Positions 1-40,711 are shown, numbered from the stretch's first letter. The stretch is DNA of 40,711 nt from an uncultured Bacteroidales bacterium (GCA_964633305.1 CAZWGG010000002.1:1-40711), one strand, 5' to 3'. Made by a program: numbers and translations. Notes: generated by a model from the letters alone, not told the origin.

Positions 1-55
1 TTTTTTAACTTATATAATAAACTTTCTTTATTCAAATAATTTAATAACTTTTGTC
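1..55. repeat. 55-bp terminal direct repeat, identical to 40657..40711 (circular-assembly overlap)
   Basis: Bases 1-55 (ttttttaacttatataataaactttc...aataacttttgtc) recur exactly as the last 55 bases. A minus-strand ORF reads through the junction in frame. Confidence 0.95.
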
Positions 56-3206: not shown

Positions 3207-3408
3207 TTTCAACTTCCTCCTTTGGTTTGAATACTTCTGGAAATTCCATGCCTAACATATCAAGAATTTTAAATATATCAGTTATGAAAAATGTGTTATG
3301 TCTGATCTTATAATTTAAACCCGATGCTGTTAATCCCAAATATTTAGCTAATTCTACAATTGATATATTTCTTTCTTTTAAGATATATCTAAAATATTTG
3401 TCGTTCAT
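3190..3408 (-). CDS. XRE-like helix-turn-helix transcriptional regulator (72 aa)
   Basis: Trimmed to MNDKYFRYILKERNISIVELAKYLGLTASGLNYKI (ATG 3408) behind GGAGGTGAGG. It is the first gene after early promoter 3428-3456. Confidence 0.6.
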   Translation of the reverse strand: MNDKYFRYILKERNISIVELAKYLGLTASGLNYKIRHNTFFITDIFKILDMLGMEFPEVFKPKEEVESGNDL

Positions 3409-3427
3409 GTCCTCACCTCCTAATACT

Positions 3428-3456
3428 ATTTTATAACAAGTCTTATTGTTTGTCAA
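3428..3456 (-). promoter_or_regulatory. sigma-70-type early promoter (TTGACA-N17-TAAAAT)
   Basis: Minus strand reads tttaaaatacttgTTGACAaacaataagacttgttaTAAAATag. It shares about 20 nt of upstream sequence and an ACTTGTT motif with promoter 4015-4043. Confidence 0.7.
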
Positions 3457-3487
3457 CAAGTATTTTAAATCACCTTTTAATTATTTA

Positions 3488-3960: not shown

Positions 3961-4014
3961 TATTCAGACCCCCAAATAATTAGTAAGTTGTTGTTGTTCT
4001 CAACTTCTAATATC

Positions 4015-4043
4015 ATTATATAACAAGTGAAACGAATTGTCAA
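4015..4043 (-). promoter_or_regulatory. sigma-70-type early promoter (TTGACA-N17-TATAAT)
   Basis: Minus strand reads tttaaaatacttgTTGACAattcgtttcacttgttaTATAATga. Full consensus hexamers with a 17-nt spacer. Confidence 0.7.
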
Positions 4044-4090
4044 CAAGTATTTTAAACTTTTATTATTTATTTGAATATATTAAGAAACGA

Positions 4091-5938: not shown

Positions 5939-6062
5939 TCCTTAACTAGTTTACCAGGCTTTAATTTAAAGTGTAAAGCATGATAACAAACACTGATATT
6001 ATTTATTCTACTTTTCAATTGGGTATATTGAAGGCGTTTCAAATATCAACTTTGCCCCCCAT

Positions 6063-6133
6063 AGCAGATAACAGATTTGAACTGTTGACTTCTAGGTTAT
6101 GAGCCTAGCACCCTGACCACTGGGTTAATCTGC
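6063..6133 (-). tRNA. tRNA-Met (anticodon CAT)
   Basis: Hand-folded cloverleaf: acceptor GCAGAT/ATCTGC, D arm ACCC-AGTGGTCA-GGGT, anticodon arm CTAGG-CTCATAA-CCTAG, variable AAGTC, T arm AACAG-TTCAAAT-CTGTT. 71 nt, no encoded CCA. Confidence 0.8.
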
Positions 6134-6142
6134 AATGCCATA

Positions 6143-7338: not shown

Positions 7339-7467
7339 TTATCGGCTTTGCTTAAAATCTTCATGCATTAATTGTCTTGCTTGTGTTCTTGTACCTATTT
7401 TTGGTATTTTTTTAGCACCATCATAACAATCTAAAAGATATACTAAATCAATTTTATACTTCGCCAT
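7339..7467 (-). CDS. possible 42-aa ORF overlapping the end of the HIRAN gene
   Basis: AAAGGAG, then 7 nt, then ATG 7467. Translation MAKYKIDLVYLLDCYDGAKKIPKIGTRTQARQLMHEDFKQSR. Overlaps the upstream gene by 14 nt. Confidence 0.3.
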   Translation of the reverse strand: MAKYKIDLVYLLDCYDGAKKIPKIGTRTQARQLMHEDFKQSR

Positions 7468-7720
7468 AGCTGGACTCCTTTATAATCAAACATGTATTAC
7501 CTTTCCATTCTAAAAAATATTGACTATTCATATTAATTAATTGTGTGCAATCTCTTTTAATATGACCAATTTGATTATCTTTCCAATACACACTAATAGC
7601 ATTTTTATCATATTTATTATGAGGTTCTTTTTTAAGTATTATATGGTCACCTTTTTGTATTTTGTCTTTAACCTCAGCGTATTTATGATATGGTAAACCA
7701 ACTACATAAATTTTATCCAT
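7454..7720 (-). CDS. stand-alone HIRAN-domain protein (88 aa)
   Basis: MDKIYVVGLPYHKY...KGDHIILKKEPHNKYDKNAISVYWKDNQIGHIKRD matches the HIRAN (PF08797) pattern. ATG 7720 lies 9 nt after AGGAGG. Confidence 0.75.
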   Translation of the reverse strand: MDKIYVVGLPYHKYAEVKDKIQKGDHIILKKEPHNKYDKNAISVYWKDNQIGHIKRDCTQLINMNSQYFLEWKGNTCLIIKESSYGEV

Positions 7721-7742
7721 TTTCAAAATCCTCCTAAATAAT

Positions 7743-7876: not shown

Positions 7877-10800
7877 TCAATCTTTATATTTTTGTTTAAT
7901 AGATCTAAACTGTCTATCTTTTATTTTAAACTTTTCAATTATCTCTGGAAGTAATTCTTTATCTTTTGGCTTTTTACCATTTTCTTTGTAGAATTTTTCT
8001 ACCAATTCAATATAATAATTATAGACTTCCTGACCTTCAACTTTTGTATTTCTTTTATTACAAACATTTTCCTTTCTTAAGTCCACATTAAAGAACGGTA
8101 CTTCTCTAACCTCTCTTTTTATAGCGTGTCCTTCATTATCTACTATAGTATTTAATTCAGCAAATTTTGATCCAAAGTATTCTATAATATCCGCCATTGC
8201 TTTTCTTACTAACACATGCCTATCAATAGTTTTATTATAAGTTACTGTATTAAATTTAATAGTATACTTTTCACCATATTCTTTAAATATTTCTTTTATA
8301 AATACTTCTTCACCTAGTATTAAAATAGCTTTATAAACTACGTCACCTCTAAATATACGACCAAATGCCTGTTTTAATCTTTCTTTTGCTGCCTGTTCAA
8401 TGGATTTAATAATAATATCACCATTACAATCAATTGATAATCTACCCTTAACATTAATATCAACTACACCATTGATAATTAATAATTCAGCTTTTTTATA
8501 ATTTCGTCCCTGTGATTCTGTACCATTAATATACGCCATTGTTCCAGTTTTTACAATATAGTCGTTTATATCCTCATTATTACTTGTATCACAATTTACT
8601 GTTTTTTCGCCCTGGTTTACTACACTTTTTAATACTAAATGATCTGTTTTAATAGGGTTTTTATGATTTATTATATCTTTCATGCTCTTACTTAGTCCTA
8701 AAAAGGTTAATGTTTTAAAATCTTGACCATCTATTAAATCCATATTTTCAATTATCAAACTATCATTATTACTTTCCCTATTTAAAATTGCTACGTCTAT
8801 ATTTTTAATACTAGGGCTTGATTGATAAGCTAATTCAGTGCAAACATTCAAATCATTGTCTTGTATTTCATTAGCTGTTAAATAATACTTAGGACATTCA
8901 AAGGACCCTAAAATTGATTTAACACTAATTGATAAGTAATTAATAAATAATTCCTTTGCTTCTTGTGAAAGAATATCTTTAAATGTTGCAAACTGTTGAG
9001 CATTTAAACCTTCACCATCTGAACCTAAACCAAAATAAATTAATTCTTCAATGGTCCCAATTTCTTCACCCCAAATATTAACATCAAAATCCTCAACATA
9101 AGCAGTCGATACTTTTAAAACTTGTGTTACTACAGCGATATGTTCATTTTTATAAAGTAAATCTTTAAAATTATTTTTTAATCCATCTTCCTGTATATTA
9201 TCTTTTAATTTATATTGCTGGATTTTATCACAAATCACATAACACAATTTAGAATTTTTATGTATTTTTTTAGGTTTCCTTCTTCCACAATCATATTTTA
9301 TTGGCCCATATGGTTCACAAAATCTATGTAGATCTTTATATAAATTTTTAGTACCATCATATTTTAATTTATATTCATGTATGCCTTCATTTTCTTCTAT
9401 GTCTTGTTTTAAATTTTCTCTTGCATGTTCATAAGTTTCATTTTCAGTTATAAGTTTTTTAATACAAGGATAAAAAGCAGTTTTTGCTGGAATATATATA
9501 TTTTCCTGTGTATCTAAGTCTTTTTTATAATAGTAATAATCATTTAGTTGAATTACTATCAATCCTCTTTCTTTAAATGATTCATATTCATCAACTATTA
9601 TTTCCATTGGTTCCTTTTTCTTTGCTTCTCTAATTGCTATCATATTTTTATTATATTCTGCTTTATGTCCCACATTATAAAAATACTTATGATTTGTAAC
9701 TACTGCCTTTATATCTGGTAATTTATTAGCTGCAATTGGTGATTGACTTTTTAATTTATGAATATTTAATTGTTTAAAACCGCCAACCTCAGAATCTAAC
9801 CAATTATCAATTCTTCTAGTAGTTTTTTTAAGGCTATAACTAACAACCCATTTAAAAGTTTTTTCAAAATCGTCTATATTAGAATTTTCTTTTGTTGTAA
9901 ATATTGTAAACACTCCATTATGAAATACGTTATATGCTAATTTTGCAGCTGATTGAACTGTTTTACCTCCACCAGTACCAACAATTTTTATAGTATCTTT
10001 TATAAAGAAATTCTTTAAATATTTTATATCAACGCATTCTTGTAATTCTTGAAATAATTTTATATTTTCAAGTTCTTCCTTTGAAGGTATAATTGATTTA
10101 AATTTATTATTTAAATTTTTAAAATGATCCAAATGTTTCTGCTCATCGCTACAATAAGAAGATAGTGTATGTATATTTAATTTAAAACCTCTTTCTGTTT
10201 CGTTAATATTAACATAGGCATCTACAGTCCCATAATTATTATTATAATGTGTATTTTTAAGTATGCTACAATATGGACAACTAGTGTGTATATGTACCCC
10301 TTTGTTATCTTCTACTACCTGGAATATATCAACACCATCTTCTTTTAATAAATTTAAAGCTGCATTTATAATAATATCATTTGATTTAGCATCGATTATT
10401 GTTGATTGTTGTTCCTTTTCCTCTTTTTTTTTCAAATGGTCAGCTGCATCTTCATGCTTTACAATTAATAATTTTTCAAATAAATCTGAAAATTGACTAA
10501 TTGGTAATATTTCAGAATCATTATCAAAATAAATTCTATCCAAATTATCTAAAGACCAAACAACAGCCCTATCTAATGTTTCAATATATTTAGAATAATT
10601 TGGGTTTATATCCAGTATTTTATTGATATCATTTTTAAAAATTAATTTAAAGTTTTTAAAATCTTTTGTTTTGTTATTCCAACTTTTATAAGTTTTAATT
10701 TTAGATAGTTGGTCAACTAATTCTTGGGGATAACCATGTTTAAAACTACCTGTTTCTTTGTCAAAGATATCAACATCAATAATAATTAAATTGTCAGCTG

Positions 10801-13117
10801 CATCTATTACAATACCTTTTGATTCTACACTATCTCTAATAACTGTTTTAGTATAATTTATCAATGGGTTTATTGGGTTTCCATTATAATATGTATAACT
10901 TTTTAAATCAGCTCTAAATCCAGAATACCCAATTTGTTTAATATCACAATCTAATAGTTTTTTTATTCTATTTATATTATGTTTGAATATTTTATTATTT
11001 TCATTTGTGTCTGCAGTTAATTCATGTTCAAAATATTTAACTGTTGAGACTTTATTATTAAAATTTTCTAATCTTATTTTTACTAATTCAGCAAACTTTT
11101 TATATTCTTCAATATCTGCCTGATCTATATTATCAGTTACAAAGATATCATTATTATCTATAGATGATTTTACAGGATGCTTTAAATTATTTACTGGGTT
11201 TATTCCTTTATCTGGTGTTGTTAAATAGTATTTATTTTCACTGTTAAGATTTTTCATGCCTTTAAATAGTAATGGTTCTATAATAATTTCCTCATTGTTA
11301 AATAATTTAATAGCATTATTTAGGTTTACATCAAGATTAGAATTTTTATTAAATTTTTGTTTGATACCAAGATTAAAAGCACCGCCTTTAGTTCTTAACT
11401 CAGAATCATTTTTTAACTTAGCTATGTAATTATTAACATCATTTTGTATTGTCCACTCAACCATGTCAACATCCAGTTCAAAATAACCTTTTCCATTTGC
11501 TTCAAAGTCAGCATCTACTATTTTTTGAATTAATTCCTTATCTTCAATTTCAAAGTAAACACCATCAGTATTAATATTTGGAGCAAATAGATCTTTATTT
11601 CTAGTACAAAGATTATAAAGTAATGACTGACATTTCAATATAACAAATCTTCCTAGTGTTTTATTAGCTATTGGTATATCATACTCACTATTAATCAAAC
11701 CATATGTTGAATTTAGTATTAATTTTAAACCTTTTTGTATGTTTTTATATTCTGTTCTTTCTTCCTCAGTCAAACTCATATCTTTAGATAATTTTTTATA
11801 TTTTTGTCTTAAGTTATAAACAGCCTCATATAATTCTACATTCATGATTTTACTAAAATATTCTTTATATTCTAATATAGTACTAGGATATTGTGATTTA
11901 TAATCAAAATCATATAAATTACCACTTTTATTTTTATAATTTGATTTAGCACCATGCGCACCACCAAAACCACCTTTAACATGAACACCATTTAATTCAA
12001 ATTCTGCTGTTTCAACTCCTGTACGTTCTTTGTATATTGTTTTCAATGCATTATCATTTTTAGTACCTTTATTATTATTTACAAAGGACACAAAATCATT
12101 AAATTCTGGAATATCTGTTTGTATATAATCGGTATAATCAATTGTAAAATCTTGTTGTCCACCTTCTAACTTTAGTAATTCAACAATTAATTCTGTATGA
12201 GGTTTTTTGTTTGTAAATAATAATTTTGAATCATAACTAATATCTTTTAAGTTTTCCAATTTAATAGCTTTAATTGCATAAAATCTATCTTTTACTAAAC
12301 CTTCCATGTATTCATAATACATAAATTCAAGGCTAACAACGTCATTTTCTGAGTAACTTATAAAAGTTTCATACATATTATCATTTATAACTGCCTGTAT
12401 ATTGTCATATTTATTAAAATCAAATTTTTGACTCATACCCAAATGTAATAATTGTAATTGTTTTAATGACATTGAAGTTCCTTCACCACTTTTATTTTGT
12501 AGTGGGCTAAAACCTGCAATTGCTTGTATATCTAATATATTACCTTTGTTAATACTTTTTCCTTCTTCTTCACTCCATATTCTAGTACAGCGGTTTCTAA
12601 TACAATTTTTAAAATCATTGTAGAATGTTCTATAAGCAGGTTTTGAATATTTTTCAAATAATTCTTTTTCATCAATATATTTTCTTTGATCTTTGAAAAA
12701 ATTCTGCCAATAATCCCTGGAAAACTCTTTAAATCTAAAACCATATTTAATTATTAAATCATTCATTTTTCTAAGCTTTAAAAGTATGTTAGTTTCTTTA
12801 TTAGCTACTAAATTTAATAATACATTTATCATTGGTTTGTCATAACCATCTGAATTATAAAAATACATTATAGAATCTTTACCTAAAATAAAATCATTAT
12901 AAAATTTTACAAATAAATTACAATCTTCGTCATTCCAGCACTCAAAAATATAAACACCTGTTTCTGGATTGTATTTTATTTGTTTAGGTAATTCTTGCTT
13001 GAATTTTAAAGGTTTGCCTATCCTTTTAAAAATAAAATTCCAGTAATCTGGAAAGCACTCTGTATCACATGAAAGAATCATGTTGATATTATACAAATCT
13101 TTGAAGTTTGTATTCAT
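7877..13117 (-). CDS. 1746-aa fusion: family-B DNA polymerase (exo + pol), primase-like DxD region, zinc finger, SF2 helicase
   Basis: Exo I SCDTE (aa 16-20), Exo II NSDGYD (88-93), Exo III YSEND (255-259). Pol motif A DFDYKSQYPS (403-412), motif B KLILNSTYG (465-473), motif C NTDG (516-519). IIIDVDIFD (778-786). HIHTSCPYC (942-950). Walker A GTGGGKT (1047-1053), Walker B VDEYE (1175-1179), motif VI QAFGRIFRG (about 1583). Confidence 0.9.
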   Translation of the reverse strand: MNTNFKDLYNINMILSCDTECFPDYWNFIFKRIGKPLKFKQELPKQIKYNPETGVYIFECWNDEDCNLFVKFYNDFILGKDSIMYFYNSDGYDKPMINVLLNLVANKETNILLKLRKMNDLIIKYGFRFKEFSRDYWQNFFKDQRKYIDEKELFEKYSKPAYRTFYNDFKNCIRNRCTRIWSEEEGKSINKGNILDIQAIAGFSPLQNKSGEGTSMSLKQLQLLHLGMSQKFDFNKYDNIQAVINDNMYETFISYSENDVVSLEFMYYEYMEGLVKDRFYAIKAIKLENLKDISYDSKLLFTNKKPHTELIVELLKLEGGQQDFTIDYTDYIQTDIPEFNDFVSFVNNNKGTKNDNALKTIYKERTGVETAEFELNGVHVKGGFGGAHGAKSNYKNKSGNLYDFDYKSQYPSTILEYKEYFSKIMNVELYEAVYNLRQKYKKLSKDMSLTEEERTEYKNIQKGLKLILNSTYGLINSEYDIPIANKTLGRFVILKCQSLLYNLCTRNKDLFAPNINTDGVYFEIEDKELIQKIVDADFEANGKGYFELDVDMVEWTIQNDVNNYIAKLKNDSELRTKGGAFNLGIKQKFNKNSNLDVNLNNAIKLFNNEEIIIEPLLFKGMKNLNSENKYYLTTPDKGINPVNNLKHPVKSSIDNNDIFVTDNIDQADIEEYKKFAELVKIRLENFNNKVSTVKYFEHELTADTNENNKIFKHNINRIKKLLDCDIKQIGYSGFRADLKSYTYYNGNPINPLINYTKTVIRDSVESKGIVIDAADNLIIIDVDIFDKETGSFKHGYPQELVDQLSKIKTYKSWNNKTKDFKNFKLIFKNDINKILDINPNYSKYIETLDRAVVWSLDNLDRIYFDNDSEILPISQFSDLFEKLLIVKHEDAADHLKKKEEKEQQSTIIDAKSNDIIINAALNLLKEDGVDIFQVVEDNKGVHIHTSCPYCSILKNTHYNNNYGTVDAYVNINETERGFKLNIHTLSSYCSDEQKHLDHFKNLNNKFKSIIPSKEELENIKLFQELQECVDIKYLKNFFIKDTIKIVGTGGGKTVQSAAKLAYNVFHNGVFTIFTTKENSNIDDFEKTFKWVVSYSLKKTTRRIDNWLDSEVGGFKQLNIHKLKSQSPIAANKLPDIKAVVTNHKYFYNVGHKAEYNKNMIAIREAKKKEPMEIIVDEYESFKERGLIVIQLNDYYYYKKDLDTQENIYIPAKTAFYPCIKKLITENETYEHARENLKQDIEENEGIHEYKLKYDGTKNLYKDLHRFCEPYGPIKYDCGRRKPKKIHKNSKLCYVICDKIQQYKLKDNIQEDGLKNNFKDLLYKNEHIAVVTQVLKVSTAYVEDFDVNIWGEEIGTIEELIYFGLGSDGEGLNAQQFATFKDILSQEAKELFINYLSISVKSILGSFECPKYYLTANEIQDNDLNVCTELAYQSSPSIKNIDVAILNRESNNDSLIIENMDLIDGQDFKTLTFLGLSKSMKDIINHKNPIKTDHLVLKSVVNQGEKTVNCDTSNNEDINDYIVKTGTMAYINGTESQGRNYKKAELLIINGVVDINVKGRLSIDCNGDIIIKSIEQAAKERLKQAFGRIFRGDVVYKAILILGEEVFIKEIFKEYGEKYTIKFNTVTYNKTIDRHVLVRKAMADIIEYFGSKFAELNTIVDNEGHAIKREVREVPFFNVDLRKENVCNKRNTKVEGQEVYNYYIELVEKFYKENGKKPKDKELLPEIIEKFKIKDRQFRSIKQKYKD

Positions 13118-13162
13118 TTTTGCCTCACTCCTTAAGAAAATAAATAGGGTATATAATACCCA

Positions 13163-13191
13163 TTGACACTATTATATACATATTATATAAT
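13163..13191 (+). promoter_or_regulatory. consensus sigma-70 promoter (TTGACA-N17-TATAAT) for the plus-strand AbrB operon
   Basis: Read directly: cATTGACActattatatacatattaTATAATat. The inverted repeat gggtat-ata-ataccc (13147-13161) abuts the -35 box. Confidence 0.7.
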
Positions 13192-13199
13192 ATAGTCAA
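13171..13199 (-). promoter_or_regulatory. sigma-70 promoter (TTGACT-N17-TATAAT) for the polymerase operon, interleaved with the plus-strand promoter
   Basis: Minus strand reads ttaTTGACTatattatataatatgtaTATAATag. Its -10 box (13171-13176) lies between the -35 and -10 boxes of the opposing promoter. Confidence 0.65.
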
Positions 13200-13239
13200 T
13201 AAGAAATTTATTATATTTTGTAGAAAGAAGGTTTATATA

Positions 13240-13404
13240 ATGAAATTAGTAATAAGAAAAATTCAATCAAAAAGGACTAGTTTAATGGTTTCTTTACCTG
13301 TTGAATTACTTGAGAAATTAAATGTTTCAGGTGGTGATTATTTAGTATTTGATTATAAAAATGATTCAATAATTTTAAAAAAATTAAATCTTGAAAGGAA
13401 ATAA
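13240..13404 (+). CDS. AbrB/MazE/SpoVT-type DNA-binding protein (54 aa)
   Basis: MKLVIRKIQSKRTSLMVSLPVELLEKLNVSGGDYLVFDYKNDSIILKKLNLERK shows the looped-hinge-helix pattern (SLPVELLEKLNV..GD). RBS GAAAGAAGG. Below the ORF-track cutoff. Confidence 0.7.
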   Translation: MKLVIRKIQSKRTSLMVSLPVELLEKLNVSGGDYLVFDYKNDSIILKKLNLERK

Positions 13405-14780: not shown

Positions 14781-15479
14781 TTATTTTTTATTATACCATT
14801 TATTACGTGCTATTGTTATTATAGAACCTGTTAAAGTTAATAATAAACCTGCAGATATAAATAAAATATTGTTCGGCTCTCCTGTTTTTGGTAACTCTTC
14901 AATATCTTTTGGTTTGTTATTTGTTGGTGTTGGACTTGGTGTTATAGAATCACTTGGTGATATTGAAGTTGTAGTTGGTGTTGTACTTGGTGTTATACTT
15001 GTACTTGGTGTTATACTTGTACTTGGTGTTATACTTGTACTTGGTGTAATAGAATTACTTGGTGTTGGACTTATTATAATTTCTGTTACCAAAATTTTTA
15101 TGGTCCAGTAATACCATTCTTTACCAGGTGACCAAATATTTGGATTAGTATTTACTTTAAAAACTTTAAATTTCAATACATTTAATCCATGTGTTAATAT
15201 ACCCTCAAATTTACCCTCATAAATTAAATTATGCTTATTGTTTTCACCTGTTACTGTAATTATACTATCTAAATTTGAAGTCGTTATATGACCATTTAAA
15301 GCTATATTTTGACCACCTACTTCTACATTGTTAATCCATTTAATATAAGTTAAATCTCCAACGTTTCCTGGTGTGTATTCTTTAAAGTTAACATCGTATT
15401 CTGGATTATCTGCAAAAACCATATTACACATAATTATTAATAATATAATTATCATTATAAAACTTAATATTTTTTTCAT
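14781..15479 (-). CDS. secreted LPXTG-motif cell-wall-anchored surface protein
   Basis: Signal peptide MKKILSFIMIIILLIIMCNMVFA. (S/T)ITPST stalk repeats. LPKTG at 14880-14894, followed by a hydrophobic segment and an RNKWYNKK tail. Confidence 0.8.
   Translation of the reverse strand: MKKILSFIMIIILLIIMCNMVFADNPEYDVNFKEYTPGNVGDLTYIKWINNVEVGGQNIALNGHITTSNLDSIITVTGENNKHNLIYEGKFEGILTHGLNVLKFKVFKVNTNPNIWSPGKEWYYWTIKILVTEIIISPTPSNSITPSTSITPSTSITPSTSITPSTTPTTTSISPSDSITPSPTPTNNKPKDIEELPKTGEPNNILFISAGLLLTLTGSIITIARNKWYNKK
14983..15054 (-). repeat. 18-bp tandem repeat, about 3.6 copies, encoding (STSITP)n
   Basis: gtacttggtgttatactt occurs at 14983, 15001 and 15019, with a partial fourth copy. Confidence 0.9.
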
Positions 15480-26036: not shown

Positions 26037-26597
26037 TTAAGCTACTTCATCCTGTATAACTATAGGTGGTGTTGTTGGTGCTGCTGCTGTATAAAATCCA
26101 GTATAAGTCATTTCTGAAATGATTTCGTCTTTTTCCTTAAATTCTAAAGAAATATTATCTATATTTAAAGCATTTTCAACTTTAATTATGCAATAAGATC
26201 CATCATGTTTTTGTCCTACAAAAGTGATATTTGTTAAAACATCAGCTGCAACTATATCTAAATCAAAAGCAATTTTTTTATATGTTCCATCTGCATCCGT
26301 TCCATCACTTACAGTAATTGGTACACCATAAGCCAAATTTACATAATTTAATTTTAGAAAATTTACTACTAATTTAGCAACAAACCTATCATATCTTCTA
26401 AGCCCTTTAGTTGGACCCATAGCACCATCATAAGCTATTTCTTTTATTACTCTTTCAATTTCTAATTTTGAACCGCCTCTTGTTGCTCCAATTACAGCTT
26501 CACCAGATTCACCATAATTTTTATATAAAACGCCCTCACCTAAAAGTATATCATTGGCTTTTTCTGGTACAGCTGGATCAAATGTATTAGTCGCCAT
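26037..26597 (-). CDS. major tail (tube) protein, short paralog (186 aa)
   Basis: Strong RBS AAGGAGGTG. Sits between the tail-completion and chaperone genes. Paralogous to residues 324-691 of the upstream ORF. Confidence 0.65.
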   Translation of the reverse strand: MATNTFDPAVPEKANDILLGEGVLYKNYGESGEAVIGATRGGSKLEIERVIKEIAYDGAMGPTKGLRRYDRFVAKLVVNFLKLNYVNLAYGVPITVSDGTDADGTYKKIAFDLDIVAADVLTNITFVGQKHDGSYCIIKVENALNIDNISLEFKEKDEIISEMTYTGFYTAAAPTTPPIVIQDEVA

Positions 26598-26623: not shown

Positions 26624-28699
26624 TTATGCTACATACTCATATAATTCAATAGGACAAGTTAAACCAGCACCATATTTATAATGGCCTGTGAATTGAGTTT
26701 CATTAACAACCTCATTCTTTTCCTCTAATCCTAAAGAAATATTTCCATCATTCAAACAATTTTTTAATACAATTTTTACTTTCTTGCCATCTATTCTTTG
26801 ACCAACTAGAGTAAAATTCTCTAAATAATCATTTAATGTGATTTCAAGATCTGCAGTAAACTCTCTATAAGTTGTTTCATCAGTATATGTAAAACCATGT
26901 CCATTCATAGGAACAATTGAACTATTTGTCTGATTCTGAATTAAATCAATAGAATCAATATAACAAACAACTTCCGCATCTGGTGCTGCTCCTTCAATTG
27001 TTAATGCAACGCCCTTTACAGCTGACCAATCGGAAGATGCTGAATCTGTGAACGCACTTTTTTTAACTTTAAAATTATTCCATTGATTAGCTGTAAAATC
27101 AGTATAAGCTTTATTGATATGAAAGAAATTAGTTTCTGTCTCTTCCGCATCACAATGAAAAGCCAATCTAATAACAGCGGTTTCACCTAAATCTGTTAAA
27201 TCTTGTGCAGCTAAATAAATACTAAATCCGATATAATCATCATCATCACTTACCTCATCATTATCAAAGGCAGTTAAATCCACATCAGAAGCAAAAACTT
27301 CATGGATACCGTAACCCTCAGTAGTTCCAATTGTTGCCTTTGCTGACTGGTCACCCTCTAATACAATAGTTGTCTCTGCTGCATAAGTTCCTCCATTATT
27401 TGCCCAATCGCCACTTTCCCAAGTTCCATCACTTTCACATGTTGAAATTCTTTTTCTATTAAAGTATTTTAGATATAAATTGTTAATAGTGCATCTTCCA
27501 ATCAATTTTTCATATCGAACCAAAGGTATTCCATCAGTATCTAATGTTGGACCCATAGCACCATCAAAACCTATTTCTTTTATTACTCTTTCGATATCAA
27601 TTTTACAGCCATCCCTTGTTGCTCCCAATAATACCTGGGTATTTAATCCATAGTTTGCATAGGCTTTAAATTCACCCATTATAATATCATTTGCAACCGG
27701 TACGGTAGTTTCAACTAAACCAACAGCCATGTTATTCCCTCCTATCAATTTATTATGCATCACACTTAATAACTCGAAATTATAATCAATTTCATATCTC
27801 CAATACATGATGCCTGATAACGCATTATTTTTAATATAATTACATTTATTTGTTATACTTTCAACATCTTCATAATATATATTATATTCCCCATCTTTTG
27901 TTAAGTATGGATTATAAGCAGTGTTATCAAAATTCCTAACCCATCCATTTTTGTTTATATAATCAGCTTTTAATTCGTTATATCCTTTATCGTTTAATGT
28001 CCAACTTCCACCAATATCATACTGTTTACCATAGGCAGGAACGCCTAAAATAAGTTTATTTGATGGAATTCCTTTAGTGGTATTAAATCTAGTGATAACA
28101 TCATGACAACTATTATCATTTTCAAATATTTCTGAATTATATAAATTGCTATGATGTACTGTTATACTAAAATCATAACACATTATGTTTATATGATCTA
28201 AATATTCACTTATGGCAAGACAATCAACATCTTCTGTATATTGCCAATAATTTGAGGCTGCAATGCTTAACTCATAAGCAGGTGAAGCCATAGCTGCCCT
28301 CATTTCTTGCATTAATAAAACAAAATTTACACCATCTTCTGGTCTACTTGTTACGCCTTCAACTTCCCTAACTGGATATTCCCAATCAATATCAACACCA
28401 TCACATCCGTAAGTATCAACTAATGATTTTATACTATTTATAAATGTAGCCCTTGAACCACTAGTTAAACATGCATCTGAAAAACCATCACAACCCCATC
28501 CGCCTACTCCTAAAATTACTTTTTTTGTAGGGTCTTGTGTTTTTACTGTTGTTACTAAACTAGTTAAATTTGTTCCACCATCTAGTAAATAAGCCTCCCC
28601 TAACTCGTTAATTTCTGCAAAGGAATATATTAAATGTGTTAATTTATCCACTTCATAACTACTAGGGAAATTATTTCTAATATAAGCTATAATATTCAT
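26624..28699 (-). CDS. GH18 glycoside hydrolase domain fused in frame to a tail-tube paralog that carries a roughly 190-aa inserted domain (691 aa)
   Basis: GH18 hallmarks: LTHLIYSFA, KVILGVGGWG, CDGVDIDWEYP (about 28373-28402), IMCYDFS, LGVPAYGKQY, GIMYWRYEID. From M324 onward: GATRDGCKIDIERVIKEIGFDGAMGPT, then NFTLVGQ and NISLGL, which parallel the 186-aa protein. Confidence 0.85.
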   Translation of the reverse strand: MNIIAYIRNNFPSSYEVDKLTHLIYSFAEINELGEAYLLDGGTNLTSLVTTVKTQDPTKKVILGVGGWGCDGFSDACLTSGSRATFINSIKSLVDTYGCDGVDIDWEYPVREVEGVTSRPEDGVNFVLLMQEMRAAMASPAYELSIAASNYWQYTEDVDCLAISEYLDHINIMCYDFSITVHHSNLYNSEIFENDNSCHDVITRFNTTKGIPSNKLILGVPAYGKQYDIGGSWTLNDKGYNELKADYINKNGWVRNFDNTAYNPYLTKDGEYNIYYEDVESITNKCNYIKNNALSGIMYWRYEIDYNFELLSVMHNKLIGGNNMAVGLVETTVPVANDIIMGEFKAYANYGLNTQVLLGATRDGCKIDIERVIKEIGFDGAMGPTLDTDGIPLVRYEKLIGRCTINNLYLKYFNRKRISTCESDGTWESGDWANNGGTYAAETTIVLEGDQSAKATIGTTEGYGIHEVFASDVDLTAFDNDEVSDDDDYIGFSIYLAAQDLTDLGETAVIRLAFHCDAEETETNFFHINKAYTDFTANQWNNFKVKKSAFTDSASSDWSAVKGVALTIEGAAPDAEVVCYIDSIDLIQNQTNSSIVPMNGHGFTYTDETTYREFTADLEITLNDYLENFTLVGQRIDGKKVKIVLKNCLNDGNISLGLEEKNEVVNETQFTGHYKYGAGLTCPIELYEYVA
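27728..27742 (-). promoter_or_regulatory. internal RBS (GGAGGG) plus in-frame ATG inside the GH18-tube ORF
   Basis: Minus strand reads ataGGAGGGaataacATGgct. ATG 27730 is codon 324, exactly at the GH18/tube boundary. Confidence 0.5.
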
Positions 28700-30554: not shown

Positions 30555-31847
30555 TTATTCTAAAGTTCCTTCTATTCTTGCACCATTAACCCAACAAAAA
30601 TAACCACTTGATACTTGTCCTGCTCCTGCTGCACTTAATGCTTCGGTAGTATCAACAATATTTGCTGCTCCTGATACTCCTAGTATTGTTGCACCTGATG
30701 CTATTTTACTAGTTACTAAGTTTTCTTCTGTGTATTGAACTAAATCATCAACACCGTCATAATAACCAACAGGTGGTATAATACCGATGGTAGTTGTTCC
30801 TGTCGCACTTATAGCTTGACTTGTTGCTGCTGGCACTGAATTATTTGGCATAGTACCAGTTAATTTTGAAGTATATGTTGAATTATAAAATGTTTTATCA
30901 AGTAATACATTTGCAACTGCTGCATCTCCATCTATACCTAAAGCAGTACTTATTGCTGTTGAAACTTCTGTTATTTTAGAATCAGTTACTACATGTGCGC
31001 TAACAACCTTTGAATCTGTTACTACTAATTTAGAATCTGCAGCTGCTACTGCTGTTGATACAACAACAACCTTTGAATCAACAACACCTAAATCAACAGC
31101 AACACTGTCAACTTTAGAATCTGTAACAACATGAGCAGAATCAATTTTACTGTCTGCTGTTGATAAATCTACTGCTACTGAATCAACTTTACTATCAGTT
31201 ACTACATGTGCGGAATCAATCTTTGAATCTGCTGTTGATACGTCGACAGCTAAAGAATCAACCTTACTATCTGTAACTACATGAGCTGATACGATTTTTG
31301 AATCACTAACAACATGAGCTGATATTACCTTACTATCTGTAACTACATGAGCTGAATCAACTTTACTATCAGCTGTTCCAACTAATACTGCTGCTGAATC
31401 TACTTTACTATCAAGTATAATAGCTCTTGAGTTAACAACACTTACTGCTGTTGAAACAACAACAACTTTACTATCAGCTACGCCCAAACCTGTAGCAACA
31501 CTATCAATTTTTGAATCTGATACAACATGAGCTGATACAACTTTTGAACCAACTACTGAATTGGCTGTTGATAATACTACAACTTTACTATCGGCTGTTG
31601 AAACCTGAGTTCCAACACTGTCTACTGCTAGATCAACACCTTCAATTGTTGATGCTGCGCTCTCAACTACACTTGCGCTTGACTCAATTGCTGCTTGTGC
31701 TGCTGACTGTGTACCAATTGCTGTTGACAAATCACTAATATTACTTGTTAAAGTACTATTAGCAACAACCACAGCCGATGCGACTGAATCTATACCAGAT
31801 AAACCAGCTGCTATACTATCTAACTTTCCTTTTAAAGTATGTGCCAT
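30555..31847 (-). CDS. repeat-rich fibrous virion protein (430 aa, about twenty 11-residue DSKxxSAHVVT-type repeats)
   Basis: Repeats read directly from the translation. The non-repeat C-terminal domain contains LLDKTFY...LTGTMPNN. Confidence 0.75.
   Translation of the reverse strand: MAHTLKGKLDSIAAGLSGIDSVASAVVVANSTLTSNISDLSTAIGTQSAAQAAIESSASVVESAASTIEGVDLAVDSVGTQVSTADSKVVVLSTANSVVGSKVVSAHVVSDSKIDSVATGLGVADSKVVVVSTAVSVVNSRAIILDSKVDSAAVLVGTADSKVDSAHVVTDSKVISAHVVSDSKIVSAHVVTDSKVDSLAVDVSTADSKIDSAHVVTDSKVDSVAVDLSTADSKIDSAHVVTDSKVDSVAVDLGVVDSKVVVVSTAVAAADSKLVVTDSKVVSAHVVTDSKITEVSTAISTALGIDGDAAVANVLLDKTFYNSTYTSKLTGTMPNNSVPAATSQAISATGTTTIGIIPPVGYYDGVDDLVQYTEENLVTSKIASGATILGVSGAANIVDTTEALSAAGAGQVSSGYFCWVNGARIEGTLE
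30975..31580 (-). repeat. imperfect 33-bp coding tandem repeats (approximate bounds)
   Basis: Recurrent ...actacatgagctga... and ...tttactatc... units, corresponding to the DSK(V/I)xSAHVV(T/S) periodicity. Confidence 0.8.
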
Positions 31848-37793: not shown

Positions 37794-38282
37794 TAATTCC
37801 TCAAACACCGCTATAATACAGTGTTTCAATTCTTTTATTGGTATTGCTCGATTCTCTGTAACATATCCAGGGTTATATGAATATAATGGTTTATAAGATA
37901 ACCATTTTTCCTCATTCATATAATATAATTCTTGCAAGCTTAATGTATTAATTAAAAACACTCTCTTTGTATCTTCCATACCATAAGCAATAAAATCTGC
38001 TTCTGTATAATAAAGCCAACCTTTTCTTTTTAGTCCTTTATTTTTATAAATTTCAATTAATATATCGTTATAATCTTTCCTACGTTTTTTCTCGTCAATA
38101 GTTATAATATGACCATTATTAAAAGTAATTATCTTATCAATACCTTTTTTTTGTGTGTCTAAGTCTTCAACAAATTTTATAGTTTTTATTCCTGTAAAAA
38201 AATTAGAATAAAAATTAGTAAATAAAGAATCTTTTGCTGCATATTCTAAATCAGTGTTAAATTCATTTATTTTTAAATTCAT
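37791..38282 (-). CDS. PD-(D/E)xK-like nuclease-fold candidate (163 aa)
   Basis: Trimmed to MNLKINEF (ATG 38282, a 20-nt overlap with the methyltransferase gene). Contains GIDKII...ITIDEKKRR, a D...D-E-K arrangement. Confidence 0.4.
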   Translation of the reverse strand: MNLKINEFNTDLEYAAKDSLFTNFYSNFFTGIKTIKFVEDLDTQKKGIDKIITFNNGHIITIDEKKRRKDYNDILIEIYKNKGLKRKGWLYYTEADFIAYGMEDTKRVFLINTLSLQELYYMNEEKWLSYKPLYSYNPGYVTENRAIPIKELKHCIIAVFEEL

Positions 38283-39399
38283 TTTCAACAATCCCTTCTG
38301 CTTGATTACCCCACACATTCCAATTATTATTGATTTTTTGTCTTGCAAACATTTCTAATAAAGTCTTGCCTAGAAACATTTTTTCAATCATATTATAATA
38401 TTTGTTTGGTTTTTTACTATGTTTTGTTTTTTTCTCTCTAAATACTGAACTAAAACGGTTTTCTGGTTCTGGTGGTTTTGCTTCTCCTTTAGTACCAATT
38501 AAAAGAATTTCGTGTTGTCCTCTACACCAATAACCCATGCCAATAGTTTCTTTATCCCATACCATATTAGTCTTATAATTGAAACCCCAATATTTTAATA
38601 ATTCTATAGCTTCAATTAATTTTGGTGCTGTTGCCCACATTAACATAACAGAATTTTTTGCAGCTGGTATATTAATTTCCTTTAGTTCTTCTAAAGACAT
38701 AGTTGGATAATTATTTTCAATTTCTCTATTACTAGATTGTGAAAAATCATATTTCCATGGTGGATCAATATAAATAACATCATATAATCCAGTTATTATT
38801 GGTGTTTTAATAGTTTTTAACTTTTCTATTTCTTTTCGTTTCTCAGCTTGCTTTATATCGTTATACACTTTATTAACTGTTGTAGTACCTGTTTTTAGCT
38901 CCTTCTTTTGTTCAACTGTTCCTTTTTCCTCAACTTGTTTTACTTTATTCAAAGTACCTTTTGAAACATTAAAAGTTTCTGCTGCTGTTTTTTCACTATC
39001 AACCTTCCCCAATATTGGGGAACCTTCCCCGGCCTTTGACATGTTTTCTTTACCTTTAATTTTTAAAAGTTCTTGGAGCTTTAAAGCTAATAGACCTTTA
39101 TCATAATTATTTAAATTCCTTCTACCAGCTTGATTTAATAATATCCATGTTAATACGTCGTGTCTATCCTGGAACCTCTCAGTATAATCGATTGTATCAA
39201 AATCTAACCAACCATTATCTTTAGATATCTTAAATCTGTTATGACCATCAATAATTAAATCATTCCATATACAAATTGGTTCTCTTATACCATCATTACA
39301 ACAATTTTCTTGTAATTGTTCAAATTCCTCTTTTGTCAAAGGTGGTATCCAGCTTTCAAACTCTTTATCAATCTTTAAATCTTTATTGGCATAACTCAT
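38263..39399 (-). CDS. ParB-like N-terminal domain fused to an MT-A70-family N6-adenine DNA methyltransferase
   Basis: IIDGHNRFKI (ParB-like motif) and IYIDPPWKY (DPPW catalytic motif). Confidence 0.85.
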   Translation of the reverse strand: MSYANKDLKIDKEFESWIPPLTKEEFEQLQENCCNDGIREPICIWNDLIIDGHNRFKISKDNGWLDFDTIDYTERFQDRHDVLTWILLNQAGRRNLNNYDKGLLALKLQELLKIKGKENMSKAGEGSPILGKVDSEKTAAETFNVSKGTLNKVKQVEEKGTVEQKKELKTGTTTVNKVYNDIKQAEKRKEIEKLKTIKTPIITGLYDVIYIDPPWKYDFSQSSNREIENNYPTMSLEELKEINIPAAKNSVMLMWATAPKLIEAIELLKYWGFNYKTNMVWDKETIGMGYWCRGQHEILLIGTKGEAKPPEPENRFSSVFREKKTKHSKKPNKYYNMIEKMFLGKTLLEMFARQKINNNWNVWGNQAEGIVENEFKNK

Positions 39400-39772: not shown

Positions 39773-40267
39773 TTATACCACTTTCTTAGCTAATTCGTAA
39801 TAATGATAGTAGAATATTTTTAAAATTAACACGCTCATATTATGACGATTTACAAAGTATATATTTATGCCCTGTCTTTTTTGTAATAATAAAAAATTTG
39901 CTATGAATGAATTTTTATTAAAGTCTGATCCATAACACCCACTTAATAAATTATCTATTGAATCATTTTCTATTAAAAGATACTTTTCACATTTTGAAAC
40001 TTTGTCAAATTCTTTATAAAATCGTGTTCTTTTAGTTTCTGTTGATAAGTTACCAGATAATTCTGTCAGGCTGTTTTTTCTTTCTATAATTATTAATTGT
40101 GGTTTATCATTAAATTTATATCCATAATCCCCCGCTTTCATATGCTCAATTTTAAAAGGGATTTTCATTTTCTTAAAATAATTAGTTATCCAATAATTAA
40201 CTTTTTCTTGTTGGTCAACAACAACTTCAATTTCTTTTAACCATTCGTCGTATTTTAATATTTTCAT
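39773..40267 (-). CDS. ERCC4 (XPF/Mus81)-type nuclease
   Basis: VVVDQQE...KAGDYGY...LIIIERKNSLTEL matches the ERCC4-domain core (GDY and ERK motifs). Confidence 0.7.
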   Translation of the reverse strand: MKILKYDEWLKEIEVVVDQQEKVNYWITNYFKKMKIPFKIEHMKAGDYGYKFNDKPQLIIIERKNSLTELSGNLSTETKRTRFYKEFDKVSKCEKYLLIENDSIDNLLSGCYGSDFNKNSFIANFLLLQKRQGINIYFVNRHNMSVLILKIFYYHYYELAKKVV

Positions 40268-40397: not shown

Positions 40398-40711
40398 TTA
40401 TAAATTTATCTTTCCTTCCTCTTCACCTTTTAATAAATCTGTTAATCGTTTTTTACATTCAGGACAAAGTAATATAATTCTTTGTCCATGACTAAAAAAT
40501 AATTCTGTAGGTTTGTTTGTCGTTTCATTGAAAGCCTTACCACATGATACACAATTGCACTCATTGAACTCTTTAACTGTCATACCATTAACATTTTTTA
40601 AATAACTATCAATAATTATCATTATTAAAATTTCCTCCTTAAGATTAATAAACTCTTTTTTTAACTTATATAATAAACTTTCTTTATTCAAATAATTTAA
40701 TAACTTTTGTC
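40398..40711 (-). CDS. C-terminal part of the junction-spanning Cys-rich ORF (alternatively an independent 74-aa zinc-ribbon protein from ATG 40622)
   Basis: CNCVSCGK...LLCPECKK zinc ribbon. An internal AAGGAGG plus ATG 40622 could start a separate product. The upstream reading frame is open through the repeat into 374..1. Confidence 0.6.
   Translation of the reverse strand, partial: QKLLNYLNKESLLYKLKKEFINLKEEILIMIIIDSYLKNVNGMTVKEFNECNCVSCGKAFNETTNKPTELFFSHGQRIILLCPECKKRLTDLLKGEEEGKINL
40657..40711. repeat. Second copy of the 55-bp terminal direct repeat
   Basis: Exact copy of bases 1-55. Confidence 0.95.

Follow-up and report, generated by a model that had tools for sequence, protein, structure and literature searches.

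A predicted family-B DNA polymerase, AEP-like primase and SF2 helicase joined in a single polypeptide of a circular phage genome

The stretch of DNA analysed here, referred to as the window throughout, comprises 40,711 nucleotides (GCA_964633305.1, CAZWGG010000002.1:1-40711), and this paper deals with one exceptionally long gene on its minus strand, whose product appears to combine polymerase, primase-like and helicase parts. An identical 55-nt direct repeat is found at the two ends of the window (1-55 and 40657-40711). As such a terminal repeat is the usual signature of circular assembly closure, the window is a complete, circularly closed phage genome of ~40,656 bp (about 40.66 kb), in which nearly all genes are located on the minus strand. 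The gene occupies 7877..13117 and encodes 1746 amino acids (aa) followed by a stop codon. It starts with ATG at position 13117, with the Shine-Dalgarno (SD) sequence AAGGAG a few bases upstream. Based on sequence and structure comparisons, the product is predicted to consist, from N- to C-terminus, of a family-B DNA polymerase (PolB), a domain resembling the archaeo-eukaryotic primases (AEP) and Prim-Pols, a zinc finger, a superfamily 2 (SF2) helicase and a C-terminal helical domain. The initial annotation had described an uninterrupted open reading frame (ORF) of this length with a series of motifs. Exact string searches recovered every one of them in order, and the coordinates agreed to within a few bases; all coordinates given below for parts of the gene refer to the minus strand. 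The window has a G+C content of only ~27%, so an open frame of 5.2 kb cannot be a product of chance.

Homologs of the whole protein were sought in several large collections. A search of 5.8 billion proteins returned 12 entries, consisting of one 99%-identical copy and 11 clusters at 37-65% identity, which originate from ENA, Logan and JGI assemblies and align collinearly from end to end. Among these relatives, nine are 1730-1768 aa long, one has 1575 aa and another is truncated. Across these 12 homologs, on which the conservation statements below are based unless another set is given, the key residues of the motifs show little or no variation. Because the collinear protein recurs across independent clusters, the fused ORF is a genuine gene under selection and does not result from misassembly. 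The family is rare: when 1.84 billion representative proteins were scanned by HMMER with aa 600-1746, only 66 matches were obtained, all of them inside the family. As suggested in the initial annotation, collinear proteins were also looked for among viral records, and the full-length fusion was found neither by tblastn among 50,697 deposited phage records (INPHARED) nor in IMG/VR, where a single contig of the split PolB+AEP type was detected; it is in metagenome protein clusters that the fusion recurs. A pattern-based scan of 185,579 GTDB species genomes revealed no prophage copy, and hence gave no direct host assignment. Pfam gave no matches to the fused protein, either whole or cut into domains, phmmer with the whole protein against PDB sequences returned nothing, and tblastn with aa 700-1746 against the 50,697 phage records returned nothing significant. 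Production of a separate helicase from an internal translation start, as in T7 gp4, was also considered, and this possibility was rejected since a search for an internal SD sequence with an in-frame start within the ORF found none.

The first 700 residues show the features of a proofreading family-B polymerase. The 3'-5' exonuclease domain (aa 1-300; 12218..13117) contains the ExoI motif SCDTE (aa 16-20), the ExoII motif NSDGYD (aa 88-93) and the ExoIII motif YSEND (aa 255-259). The palm and fingers (aa 301-600; 11318..12217) contain motif A, DFDYKSQYPS (aa 403-412; nt 11882-11911), motif B, KLILNSTYG (aa 465-473; nt 11699-11725), and a variant motif C, NINTDG (aa 514-519; nt 11561-11578). The thumb and a C-terminal extension (aa 601-700; 11018..11317) were modelled at pLDDT 80-90 and stay with the polymerase in all split relatives. 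The "DNA polymerase" family phrog_1252 matches aa 7-601 (E 5.5e-41), a match in which the exonuclease domain lies, and the family profile searched against PDB aligned motifs A, B and C with the palm of the Pol alpha catalytic subunit (E ~9e-5). The exonuclease residues D18, E20, N88, D93, Y255 and D259 are each conserved to 90% or more, and D405, S408, Y410, P411, K465, N469, S470 and G473 of motifs A and B are invariant. Within motif C, which in its canonical form is YGDTDS with two Asp residues, N516, T517, D518 and G519 are conserved; the second, metal-binding Asp (D518) is invariant and the first Asp is replaced by Asn516. It was reported that primer-independent PolBs are likewise missing the first motif C Asp, yet polymerise efficiently (PMC7544198).

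Among deposited phages, tblastn matched only aa 312-584 of the polymerase, at 28-32% identity, to the polymerases of Klebsiella JD001-like, Listeria P35-like, Enterococcus and Vibrio phages. The nearest polymerase clade among cultured phages is represented by gp33 of Listeria phage P35 (PHROG 1252), which was aligned by hhalign with a probability of 98.8% (E 4e-17) and shares NINTDG. Since this cultured phage polymerase carries the same variant motif C, the variant is a trait of the clade and not a sign of decay. Taken together, the matches to phrog_1252, Pol alpha and P35 gp33 bear out the earlier assignment of a family-B polymerase with three exonuclease motifs, and aa 1-700 are predicted to form an exonuclease-proficient family-B DNA polymerase of the Listeria-P35-like clade. 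In P35, the polymerase gene gp33 is directly followed by the primase-helicase gene gp34, so that functions fused here are encoded there by separate genes. P35 gp34 is a PriCT-1 + DUF5906/D5-like superfamily 3 (SF3) protein without detectable similarity to aa 600-1746 of the fused protein. The idea that the C-terminal half is a diverged copy of a P35-type neighboring gene was rejected, because hhalign of aa 600-1746 against gp34 showed no relationship.

The region following the polymerase (aa 701-890; 10448..11017) had been annotated as primase-like around the acidic string IIIDVDIFD (aa 778-786; nt 10760-10786), and this was the weakest part of the initial annotation. The AlphaFold (AF2) model of aa 700-1010, calculated from a 24-sequence alignment, reached a pLDDT of 90.6 and placed the DxD motif on a beta-strand. 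Foldseek with the AEP-like domain against PDB gave the prim-pol of pRN1 ORF904 (1ro0) as the top match (E 0.069, probability 0.69, TM 0.39), and in BFVD ranks 1-23 were dominated by phage Prim-Pol and primase(-helicase) proteins, with E values between 2e-3 and 8e-2 and probabilities reaching 1.00. The only PDB sequences matched by the domain profile were four NrS-1 prim-pol entries (nine structures), which were DxD-aligned at E ~2. The domain was also compared by hhalign with an alignment of the NrS-1 prim-pol family (93 members, Pfam PF22763 and PF09250), which gave E 8e-4 over 135 columns with a score of 30.4. Forty block-shuffled controls scored 13.9 +/- 2.1 and no higher than 18.1, and the reversed alignment scored 15.7, so that the match has z ~8 against the shuffles. 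When the whole-protein profile was compared with gp55 of phage 1706, the sole aligned stretch was the PrimPol domain of gp55 (aa 472-593), in the same motif register (E 0.25).

The motifs of this domain are conserved in an unusual combination. Motif I IIIDVD (D781, D783) aligns to FIDLDH of NrS-1, and motif III Glu846, in Y-I-E-T/I-L, aligns to "LEVY" of NrS-1 and "IEIK" of gp55. The nucleotide-binding His of the motif II signature sGxGxH is not present; the aligned position holds an invariant Lys824 in N-F-K-L-I-F, and this replacement explains why no clear motif II/III had been found before. D781, D783, K824 and E846 are invariant in 21/21 DxD-type sequences, down to ~30% identity, and D786 of IIIDVDIFD is also conserved. 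The mean pairwise identity of the domain is 0.56-0.60, against 0.54-0.58 for the polymerase and helicase cores. AEPs that are active although they lack this His are on record: PolpTN2 has Gln in its place, and motif II is described as "relaxed" in the PrimPol-PV1 supergroup (PMC5862659). Because five independent, individually modest lines converge, the primase-like region is now supported as AEP/Prim-Pol-type. Sequence and model together make it very probable that aa 700-890 have an AEP/Prim-Pol fold, and judged on the same basis catalytic competence is slightly favored over its loss. The AEP of the fused protein would represent a lineage in which the signature His of motif II is replaced by Lys. 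It was assigned to no named AEP family, and PF09250 and PF22763 do not match. The alternative readings of IIIDVDIFD as a Toprim/DnaG or HAD-phosphatase site were dropped, since all fold and profile signals point to AEP; they are further opposed by the location of the DxD on the first core strand and by the AEP-like motif II and III positions downstream.

A helical linker (aa 891-925; 10343..10447) connects the AEP-like domain to a zinc-finger module (aa 926-1005; 10103..10342). The linker is among the least conserved segments, with a mean pairwise identity of 0.42, and is the site where relatives split into two genes. The zinc-finger module downstream of it is small and beta-rich, and contains C947-P-x-C950 ... 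C989-x5-H995. These four ligands are invariant in all module-bearing sequences, including stand-alone helicases and a D5-like helicase. The earlier reading of an HxHxxCxxC element, corresponding to HIHTSCPYC (aa 942-950; nt 10268-10294), was right in that a zinc finger is present and wrong in its type: the conserved pattern is CCCH, and neither His of HxHxxCxxC is conserved. The same module is N-terminal in the stand-alone helicases P0014, P0016 and P0019 and, as CPxC...CxxDxxH, N-terminal to a D5-like SF3 helicase in two further contigs, L004 and L012 (hhalign of the zinc finger, E 0.0036). From its ligand pattern, the module is described here as a CCCH zinc finger and is assigned to no named zinc-finger family such as the UL52-like or DnaG Zn-ribbon types. 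An AEP followed by a ZnBD or PriCT module, a helicase and a winged helix (WH) is the canonical primase-helicase architecture in mobile genetic elements (PMC5862659).

The helicase (aa 1030-1610; 8288..10030) contains Walker A GTGGGKT (aa 1047-1053; nt 9959-9979), VVTNH, Walker B VDEYE (aa 1175-1179; nt 9581-9595), the motif III-like YYLTAN, the motif V-like NGTESQGRNY and motif VI QAFGRIFRG (aa 1583-1591; nt 8345-8371). T1048, G1049, K1052, T1053, D1176, E1177, Q1583, G1586, R1587 and R1590 vary little or not at all. Motif II is followed by an insertion of ~200 aa (aa 1201-1400; nt 8918-9517), which is poorly conserved and partly of low confidence in the model. Foldseek with the model of aa 600-1746 (pLDDT 71) retrieved the SF2 enzymes DinG, XPD, SecA, UvrB and Hna (E 1.5e-7 to 1e-4), with DinG (9ii8, 9kqh, 6fws) and XPD (2vsf, 5h8w) at the top (E 1.5e-7 to 3.5e-5); the matched enzymes carry large insertions in their motor domains. 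In the most divergent full-length homolog, P0012, Pfam detected DEAD (7.4e-7) and ResIII (1.4e-6), whereas the window protein itself gave none. The earlier call of an SF2 helicase is thus upheld by fold matches and by this homolog, and the helicase profile against PDB sequences added marginal SF2 matches only (E 0.02).

Within SF2, the motifs are collinear with those of Escherichia coli DinG (Walker A, VVTNH corresponding to VVVANH, the DExx box, NGTESQG and QxxGRxxR). The Rad3-related DinG and XPD proteins, which are its top fold matches, are helicases of 5'-3' polarity with an Arch-type insertion after motif II. The large insertion of the fused protein lies at the same place and may correspond to it, but the 4-Cys Fe-S domain in helicase domain 1 of these enzymes has no counterpart: no conserved Cys was found between Walker A and motif II across the homologs. 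Some Gram-positive DinG proteins also lack the Fe-S cluster. The enzyme is accordingly described as an SF2 helicase with DinG/XPD-like topology, the DinG/XPD label being given on the Foldseek ranking and motif collinearity only. The C-terminal helical domain (aa 1611-1746; 7880..8287) ends in a three-helix bundle, with modelled helices at aa 1695-1745. HTH_28 matches in this domain are weak (2 homologs, E 0.21), and the small stand-alone proteins P0055, P0068 and P0075 match this domain only. That it binds DNA as a putative helix-turn-helix, analogous to the winged helix of AEP primase-helicases, is only a guess.

Mapping of 75 retrieved proteins with local hidden Markov models (HMMs), combined with contig look-ups, revealed three arrangements of these parts. 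The first is the full fusion. The second comprises PolB+thumb+AEP proteins of ~870-900 aa. In L004 (2873-7352) and L012 (1056-5538), an 878-aa PolB+AEP-like gene is overlapped at its start by an upstream gene of 620-621 aa, which encodes the zinc finger and a D5-like SF3 helicase; in this lineage a RecD2-like SF1 helicase gene lies downstream of the PolB+AEP-like gene. The third arrangement is centered on the helicase and includes zinc finger+SF2 helicases of 860-915 aa as well as P0015, in which AEP, zinc finger and SF2 helicase are joined without a polymerase. Stand-alone helicase homologs span 700-950 aa. The relatives are split precisely at the junction of AEP core and zinc finger, so that the zinc finger travels with the helicase, whether SF2 or D5-like SF3, and the AEP core travels with the polymerase. 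By the Rosetta-stone argument, the existence of split and fused relatives argues that the four parts work together, and in the split systems it suggests that a primase may be assembled in trans at the polymerase-helicase interface. Stand-alone zinc finger+SF2 helicase homologs were also observed outside obvious phage structural contexts (L007, L009); one of them is located with RepA_N and FtsK/SpoIIIE genes, which suggests a plasmid or an integrative conjugative element, and the other adjoins a protein with a weak DnaG zinc-ribbon match.

Not all polymerase-attached relatives have an intact AEP core. In P0057, P0058, P0059 and P0062, the C-terminal 85-215 aa keep the segment immediately upstream of the DxD core, and in the three that could be aligned (P0057, P0058, P0059) the domain is kept and the DxD is lost. 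The AEP-like domain can therefore persist without motif I, and a non-catalytic role is possible in some lineages. Two of these three DxD-less relatives retain an SG(I)H-type motif II, which is absent from the DxD-bearing group, and the two losses are thus complementary.

Based on the domain composition, its conservation and the models, the ORF is probably the phage's own core replication enzyme in a single chain, comprising PolB, an AEP+zinc-finger primase and an SF2 helicase. In the mechanism proposed here, we infer primase activity, the polarity of the helicase, an intramolecular hand-off and the role at the replication fork. The helicase would translocate on one template strand and open the parental duplex, and the adjacent AEP+zinc-finger module, acting as a primase, would lay primers on the exposed, displaced single strand. 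The covalently tethered PolB would take over and extend the primer. A second copy, or the same chain, would perform leading-strand synthesis coupled to unwinding, so that two or more copies would probably be present per fork, and the recombination proteins of the phage may assist initiation or restart. As the initial annotation had stated, no separate primase, helicase or polymerase gene accompanies the fused gene, which holds at the sensitivity of PHROG and Pfam searches of the phage genome.

Several observations weigh against this reading. No link to AEP reaches conventional significance by itself (Foldseek E 0.002 or worse, PDB HMM E ~2), the Pfam Prim-Pol families PF09250 and PF22763 do not match the window protein, whole or by domain, the motif II His that is diagnostic of AEP is missing, and the domain is kept without its DxD in P0057, P0058 and P0059. 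The hhalign comparisons of the helicase profile with single E. coli DinG, UvrB and RhlE sequences gave E 0.05, 0.012 and 0.021 and are not discriminating; moreover, SF2 helicases are rarely replicative, and DinG, XPD and UvrB are repair enzymes. About ten small ORFs of the genome are unannotated and could hide a single-stranded DNA-binding protein or a helicase loader, and the phage recombination proteins could support primer-independent, recombination-dependent replication.

The strongest competing explanation accepts a polymerase-helicase fusion and takes the AEP-like domain as a catalytically dead relic, which would bridge polymerase and helicase structurally or act between them as a DNA-binding adaptor, with primers supplied by the host primase or by recombination intermediates formed with the Erf, Gam-like and ERCC4 nuclease proteins. 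It agrees with the substitution of Lys824 for the motif II His, with the DxD-less relatives that keep the domain on a polymerase, with the lack of a Pfam Prim-Pol match, and with a genome that encodes Erf, Gam-like protein, ERCC4 nuclease and a HIRAN protein. Against it, D781, D783 and E846 together with K824 are invariant in all 21 DxD-type sequences, and the domain is as conserved as the catalytic cores; it is always paired, in cis or through an adjacent gene, with the conserved zinc finger, as in real primases, and AEPs are known that work without the motif II His (PMC5862659). We consider a relic rather unlikely. In another explanation, the C-terminal SF2 module would be a repair, restart or origin-remodelling translocase of the DinG/XPD/UvrB kind that travels with the polymerase, the fork being unwound by a host DnaB-type helicase or by strand displacement by the polymerase. 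The best fold matches are indeed the repair helicases DinG, XPD and UvrB, stand-alone zinc finger+SF2 homologs occur in non-phage contexts such as that with RepA_N and FtsK genes, other lineages couple the same PolB+AEP to a D5-like SF3 helicase, and among the replicative helicases of viruses no superfamily is rarer than SF2 (PMC4889955). Yet the module is the sole helicase detected in the genome and is covalently preceded by a primase-type AEP+zinc finger, an order typical of replicative primase-helicases, in 94% of which the primase precedes the helicase. The primase-SF2 replicative helicases of phages N15 and PY54 provide an experimental precedent (PMC4889955), which leaves a role away from the fork improbable.

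The two remaining explanations concern the polymerase and the ORF itself. A protein-primed PolB of the phi29/tectivirus type would need no primase and goes with a linear genome that has inverted terminal repeats and a terminal protein, and P35 gp33 does match PF03175 (DNA_pol_B_2) weakly, below threshold. Against this, the assembly circularises through the 55-nt direct overlap and the window has no terminal inverted repeats, TerS and TerL packaging genes are present, the best match of the profile is the RNA-primed Pol alpha, and the polymerases of the relatives adjoin primase-helicase genes; protein priming is thus very improbable. The chance that misassembly or a frameshift has joined separate polymerase, primase and helicase genes into the long ORF is smaller still and practically negligible: separate genes for the parts do occur in related lineages, but eleven independent clusters from three data sources show the same collinear protein (nine of 1730-1768 aa, 37-99% identity), no internal SD+start site was found in the ORF, and in all of these clusters the linker can be aligned and stays in frame.

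The preferred reading, a core replication enzyme in one chain, can tentatively be taken further. The protein may be a replisome in one chain that needs no partner to unwind and prime DNA and to copy it with proofreading, and its lineage may show a "split primase" coupling, in which the AEP core resides on the polymerase and the zinc finger on the helicase, a functional primase arises only where both meet, and the two halves are welded together in the fused protein; a DinG/XPD-like monomeric SF2 motor would then act as the replicative fork helicase. We regard this extended proposal as possible but doubtful. If the chain does have all four activities, it would rank among the smallest complete machines for DNA replication that are known, and no earlier one combines PolB with an SF2 helicase. 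It would also provide a minimal model for the coupling of priming, unwinding and synthesis, and possibly a one-enzyme reagent for primer-free isothermal DNA amplification. NrS-1 polymerase, and TthPrimPol with phi29, are already used in DNA amplification. The split and fused relatives offer a natural experiment on the cooperation of primase zinc finger and catalytic core in cis and in trans, and the family adds to the few SF2 enzymes for which a role as replicative helicase has been proposed.

Single-chain phage proteins combining polymerase, primase and helicase have been described before, namely gp55 of phage 1706 (SF3 helicase-AEP-PolB) and Pas55 of phiAsp2 (SF3-DnaG-PolA) (PMC4889955). The gp55 type was later named the HelPrimPolB group, with members in Lactococcus phage 1706 and homologs in Rhodococcus phages (PMC7544198). 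What is new in the fused protein is therefore the order and composition of its domains, and not the concept of a single chain with these activities. The apicoplast PREX protein is another polymerase-primase-helicase chain. Like the fused protein, gp55 unites a helicase, an AEP/PrimPol and a family-B polymerase in one chain of a tailed phage. The order in gp55 is reversed (helicase-PrimPol-PolB, against PolB-AEP-zinc finger-helicase here), its helicase belongs to SF3 and not to SF2, its motif II His is kept (GGGIHLH) where Lys is found here, and no specific relationship is detectable between its PolB and the P35-like PolB of the fused protein. Because order, helicase, motif II and PolB all differ, the two kinds of fusion look independent.

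Parts of the architecture resemble other known systems. The C-terminal 1050 aa, with AEP, zinc module, helicase and small helical domain, are laid out like the AEP-(PriCT/ZnBD)-helicase-WH primase-helicases of mobile elements, and the active PolpTN2 keeps acidic motifs I and III with the motif II His replaced by Gln, as it is by Lys here (PMC5862659). However, neither the mobile-element AEPs nor NrS-1 gp28 nor pRN1 ORF904 has an N-terminal PolB, the mobile-element primase-helicases use SF3, SF4 or SF6 helicases whereas an SF2 helicase with a large insertion is found here, and NrS-1 lacks the zinc finger that the fused protein has. With respect to the helicase type, the closest layouts are RepA of N15 and PY54 (DnaG-primase-SF2) and gp68 of PAU (AEP + SF2), in which the primase is N-terminal to the SF2 helicase as it is here, and the SF2 helicase of N15 and PY54 was shown experimentally to be replicative (PMC4889955). 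These proteins differ from the fused protein in having no fused polymerase, and the primase of N15 and PY54 is of the Toprim/DnaG type. For this comparison, the tblastn searches of INPHARED showed no sequence similarity to deposited phage genomes.

The surroundings of the gene are those of a tailed phage. A PHROG scan identified a siphovirus-type module with TerS, TerL, portal, scaffold, major capsid protein, tail proteins, tape measure protein and endolysin. The relatives of TerL, at identities of at most 36-38%, infect Bacillota (Clostridium, Listeria, Streptococcus, Staphylococcus), and for this reason the host is likely to be a low-GC Gram-positive bacterium. Genes related to recombination and DNA processing are a Gam-like protein (918-1595), an Erf-like annealing protein (2026-2895) and an ERCC4-type nuclease (39773-40267). 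A 378-aa protein with a ParB-like nuclease N-terminal region and a DNA methyltransferase is encoded at 38263-39399 on the minus strand (phrog_359, E 7e-53; phrog_12047, E 1e-7).

Directly downstream of the fused gene lies a gene for a stand-alone HIRAN protein of 90 aa (7454-7726, minus strand; PF08797, E 2e-13). HIRAN domains bind 3'-OH DNA ends at stalled forks. The initial annotation had proposed this protein as a possible partner of the replisome; the gene is real, but in the three relatives examined (P0007, P0011, P0012) the fused gene has no annotated HIRAN gene as a neighbor, and its role as a conserved core partner was consequently rejected. On the other side, the divergent intergenic region upstream of the fused gene (13118..13239), as read from the sequence, contains TTGACA / TATAAT-like hexamers and a perfect palindrome, GGGTATATAATACCC, at 13147-13161, which could be an operator. 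It separates the fused gene from a divergent gene on the plus strand (13240-13404) encoding an AbrB/MazE-type DNA-binding protein of 54 aa (PF04014, E 1e-7). A MazE-type gene is found at the equivalent position in the phage carrying P0007 (L031).

Several minor features were noted elsewhere in the window. A single tRNA-Met (CAT) gene was predicted by ARAGORN and Rfam at 6061-6135 on the minus strand. Sequences repeated in the upstream and start regions, ATAATTAAACACCCTTTC..., occur at three consecutive early-gene starts (1374-1414, 1990-2030, 2884-2924), and a 70-nt repeat pair (3400-3469 / 3987-4056) ends in TTGTCAACAAGTATTTTAAA; these may be repeated promoters or operators. The adjacent minus-strand genes 26037-26597 and 26624-28699 each match PHROG 885, a major tail protein, and have in common an 85-nt repeat with 84% identity (26410-26494, 27546-27630), and the second of them (691 aa) may be a duplicated or extended tail-tube protein. 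Two further minus-strand ORFs without functional annotation are rich in repeats: the 232-aa ORF 14781-15479 contains an 18-nt tandem array at 14912-15070, and in the 430-aa ORF 30555-31847 internal units of 44-102 nt (families D2-D4) are repeated three to seven times.

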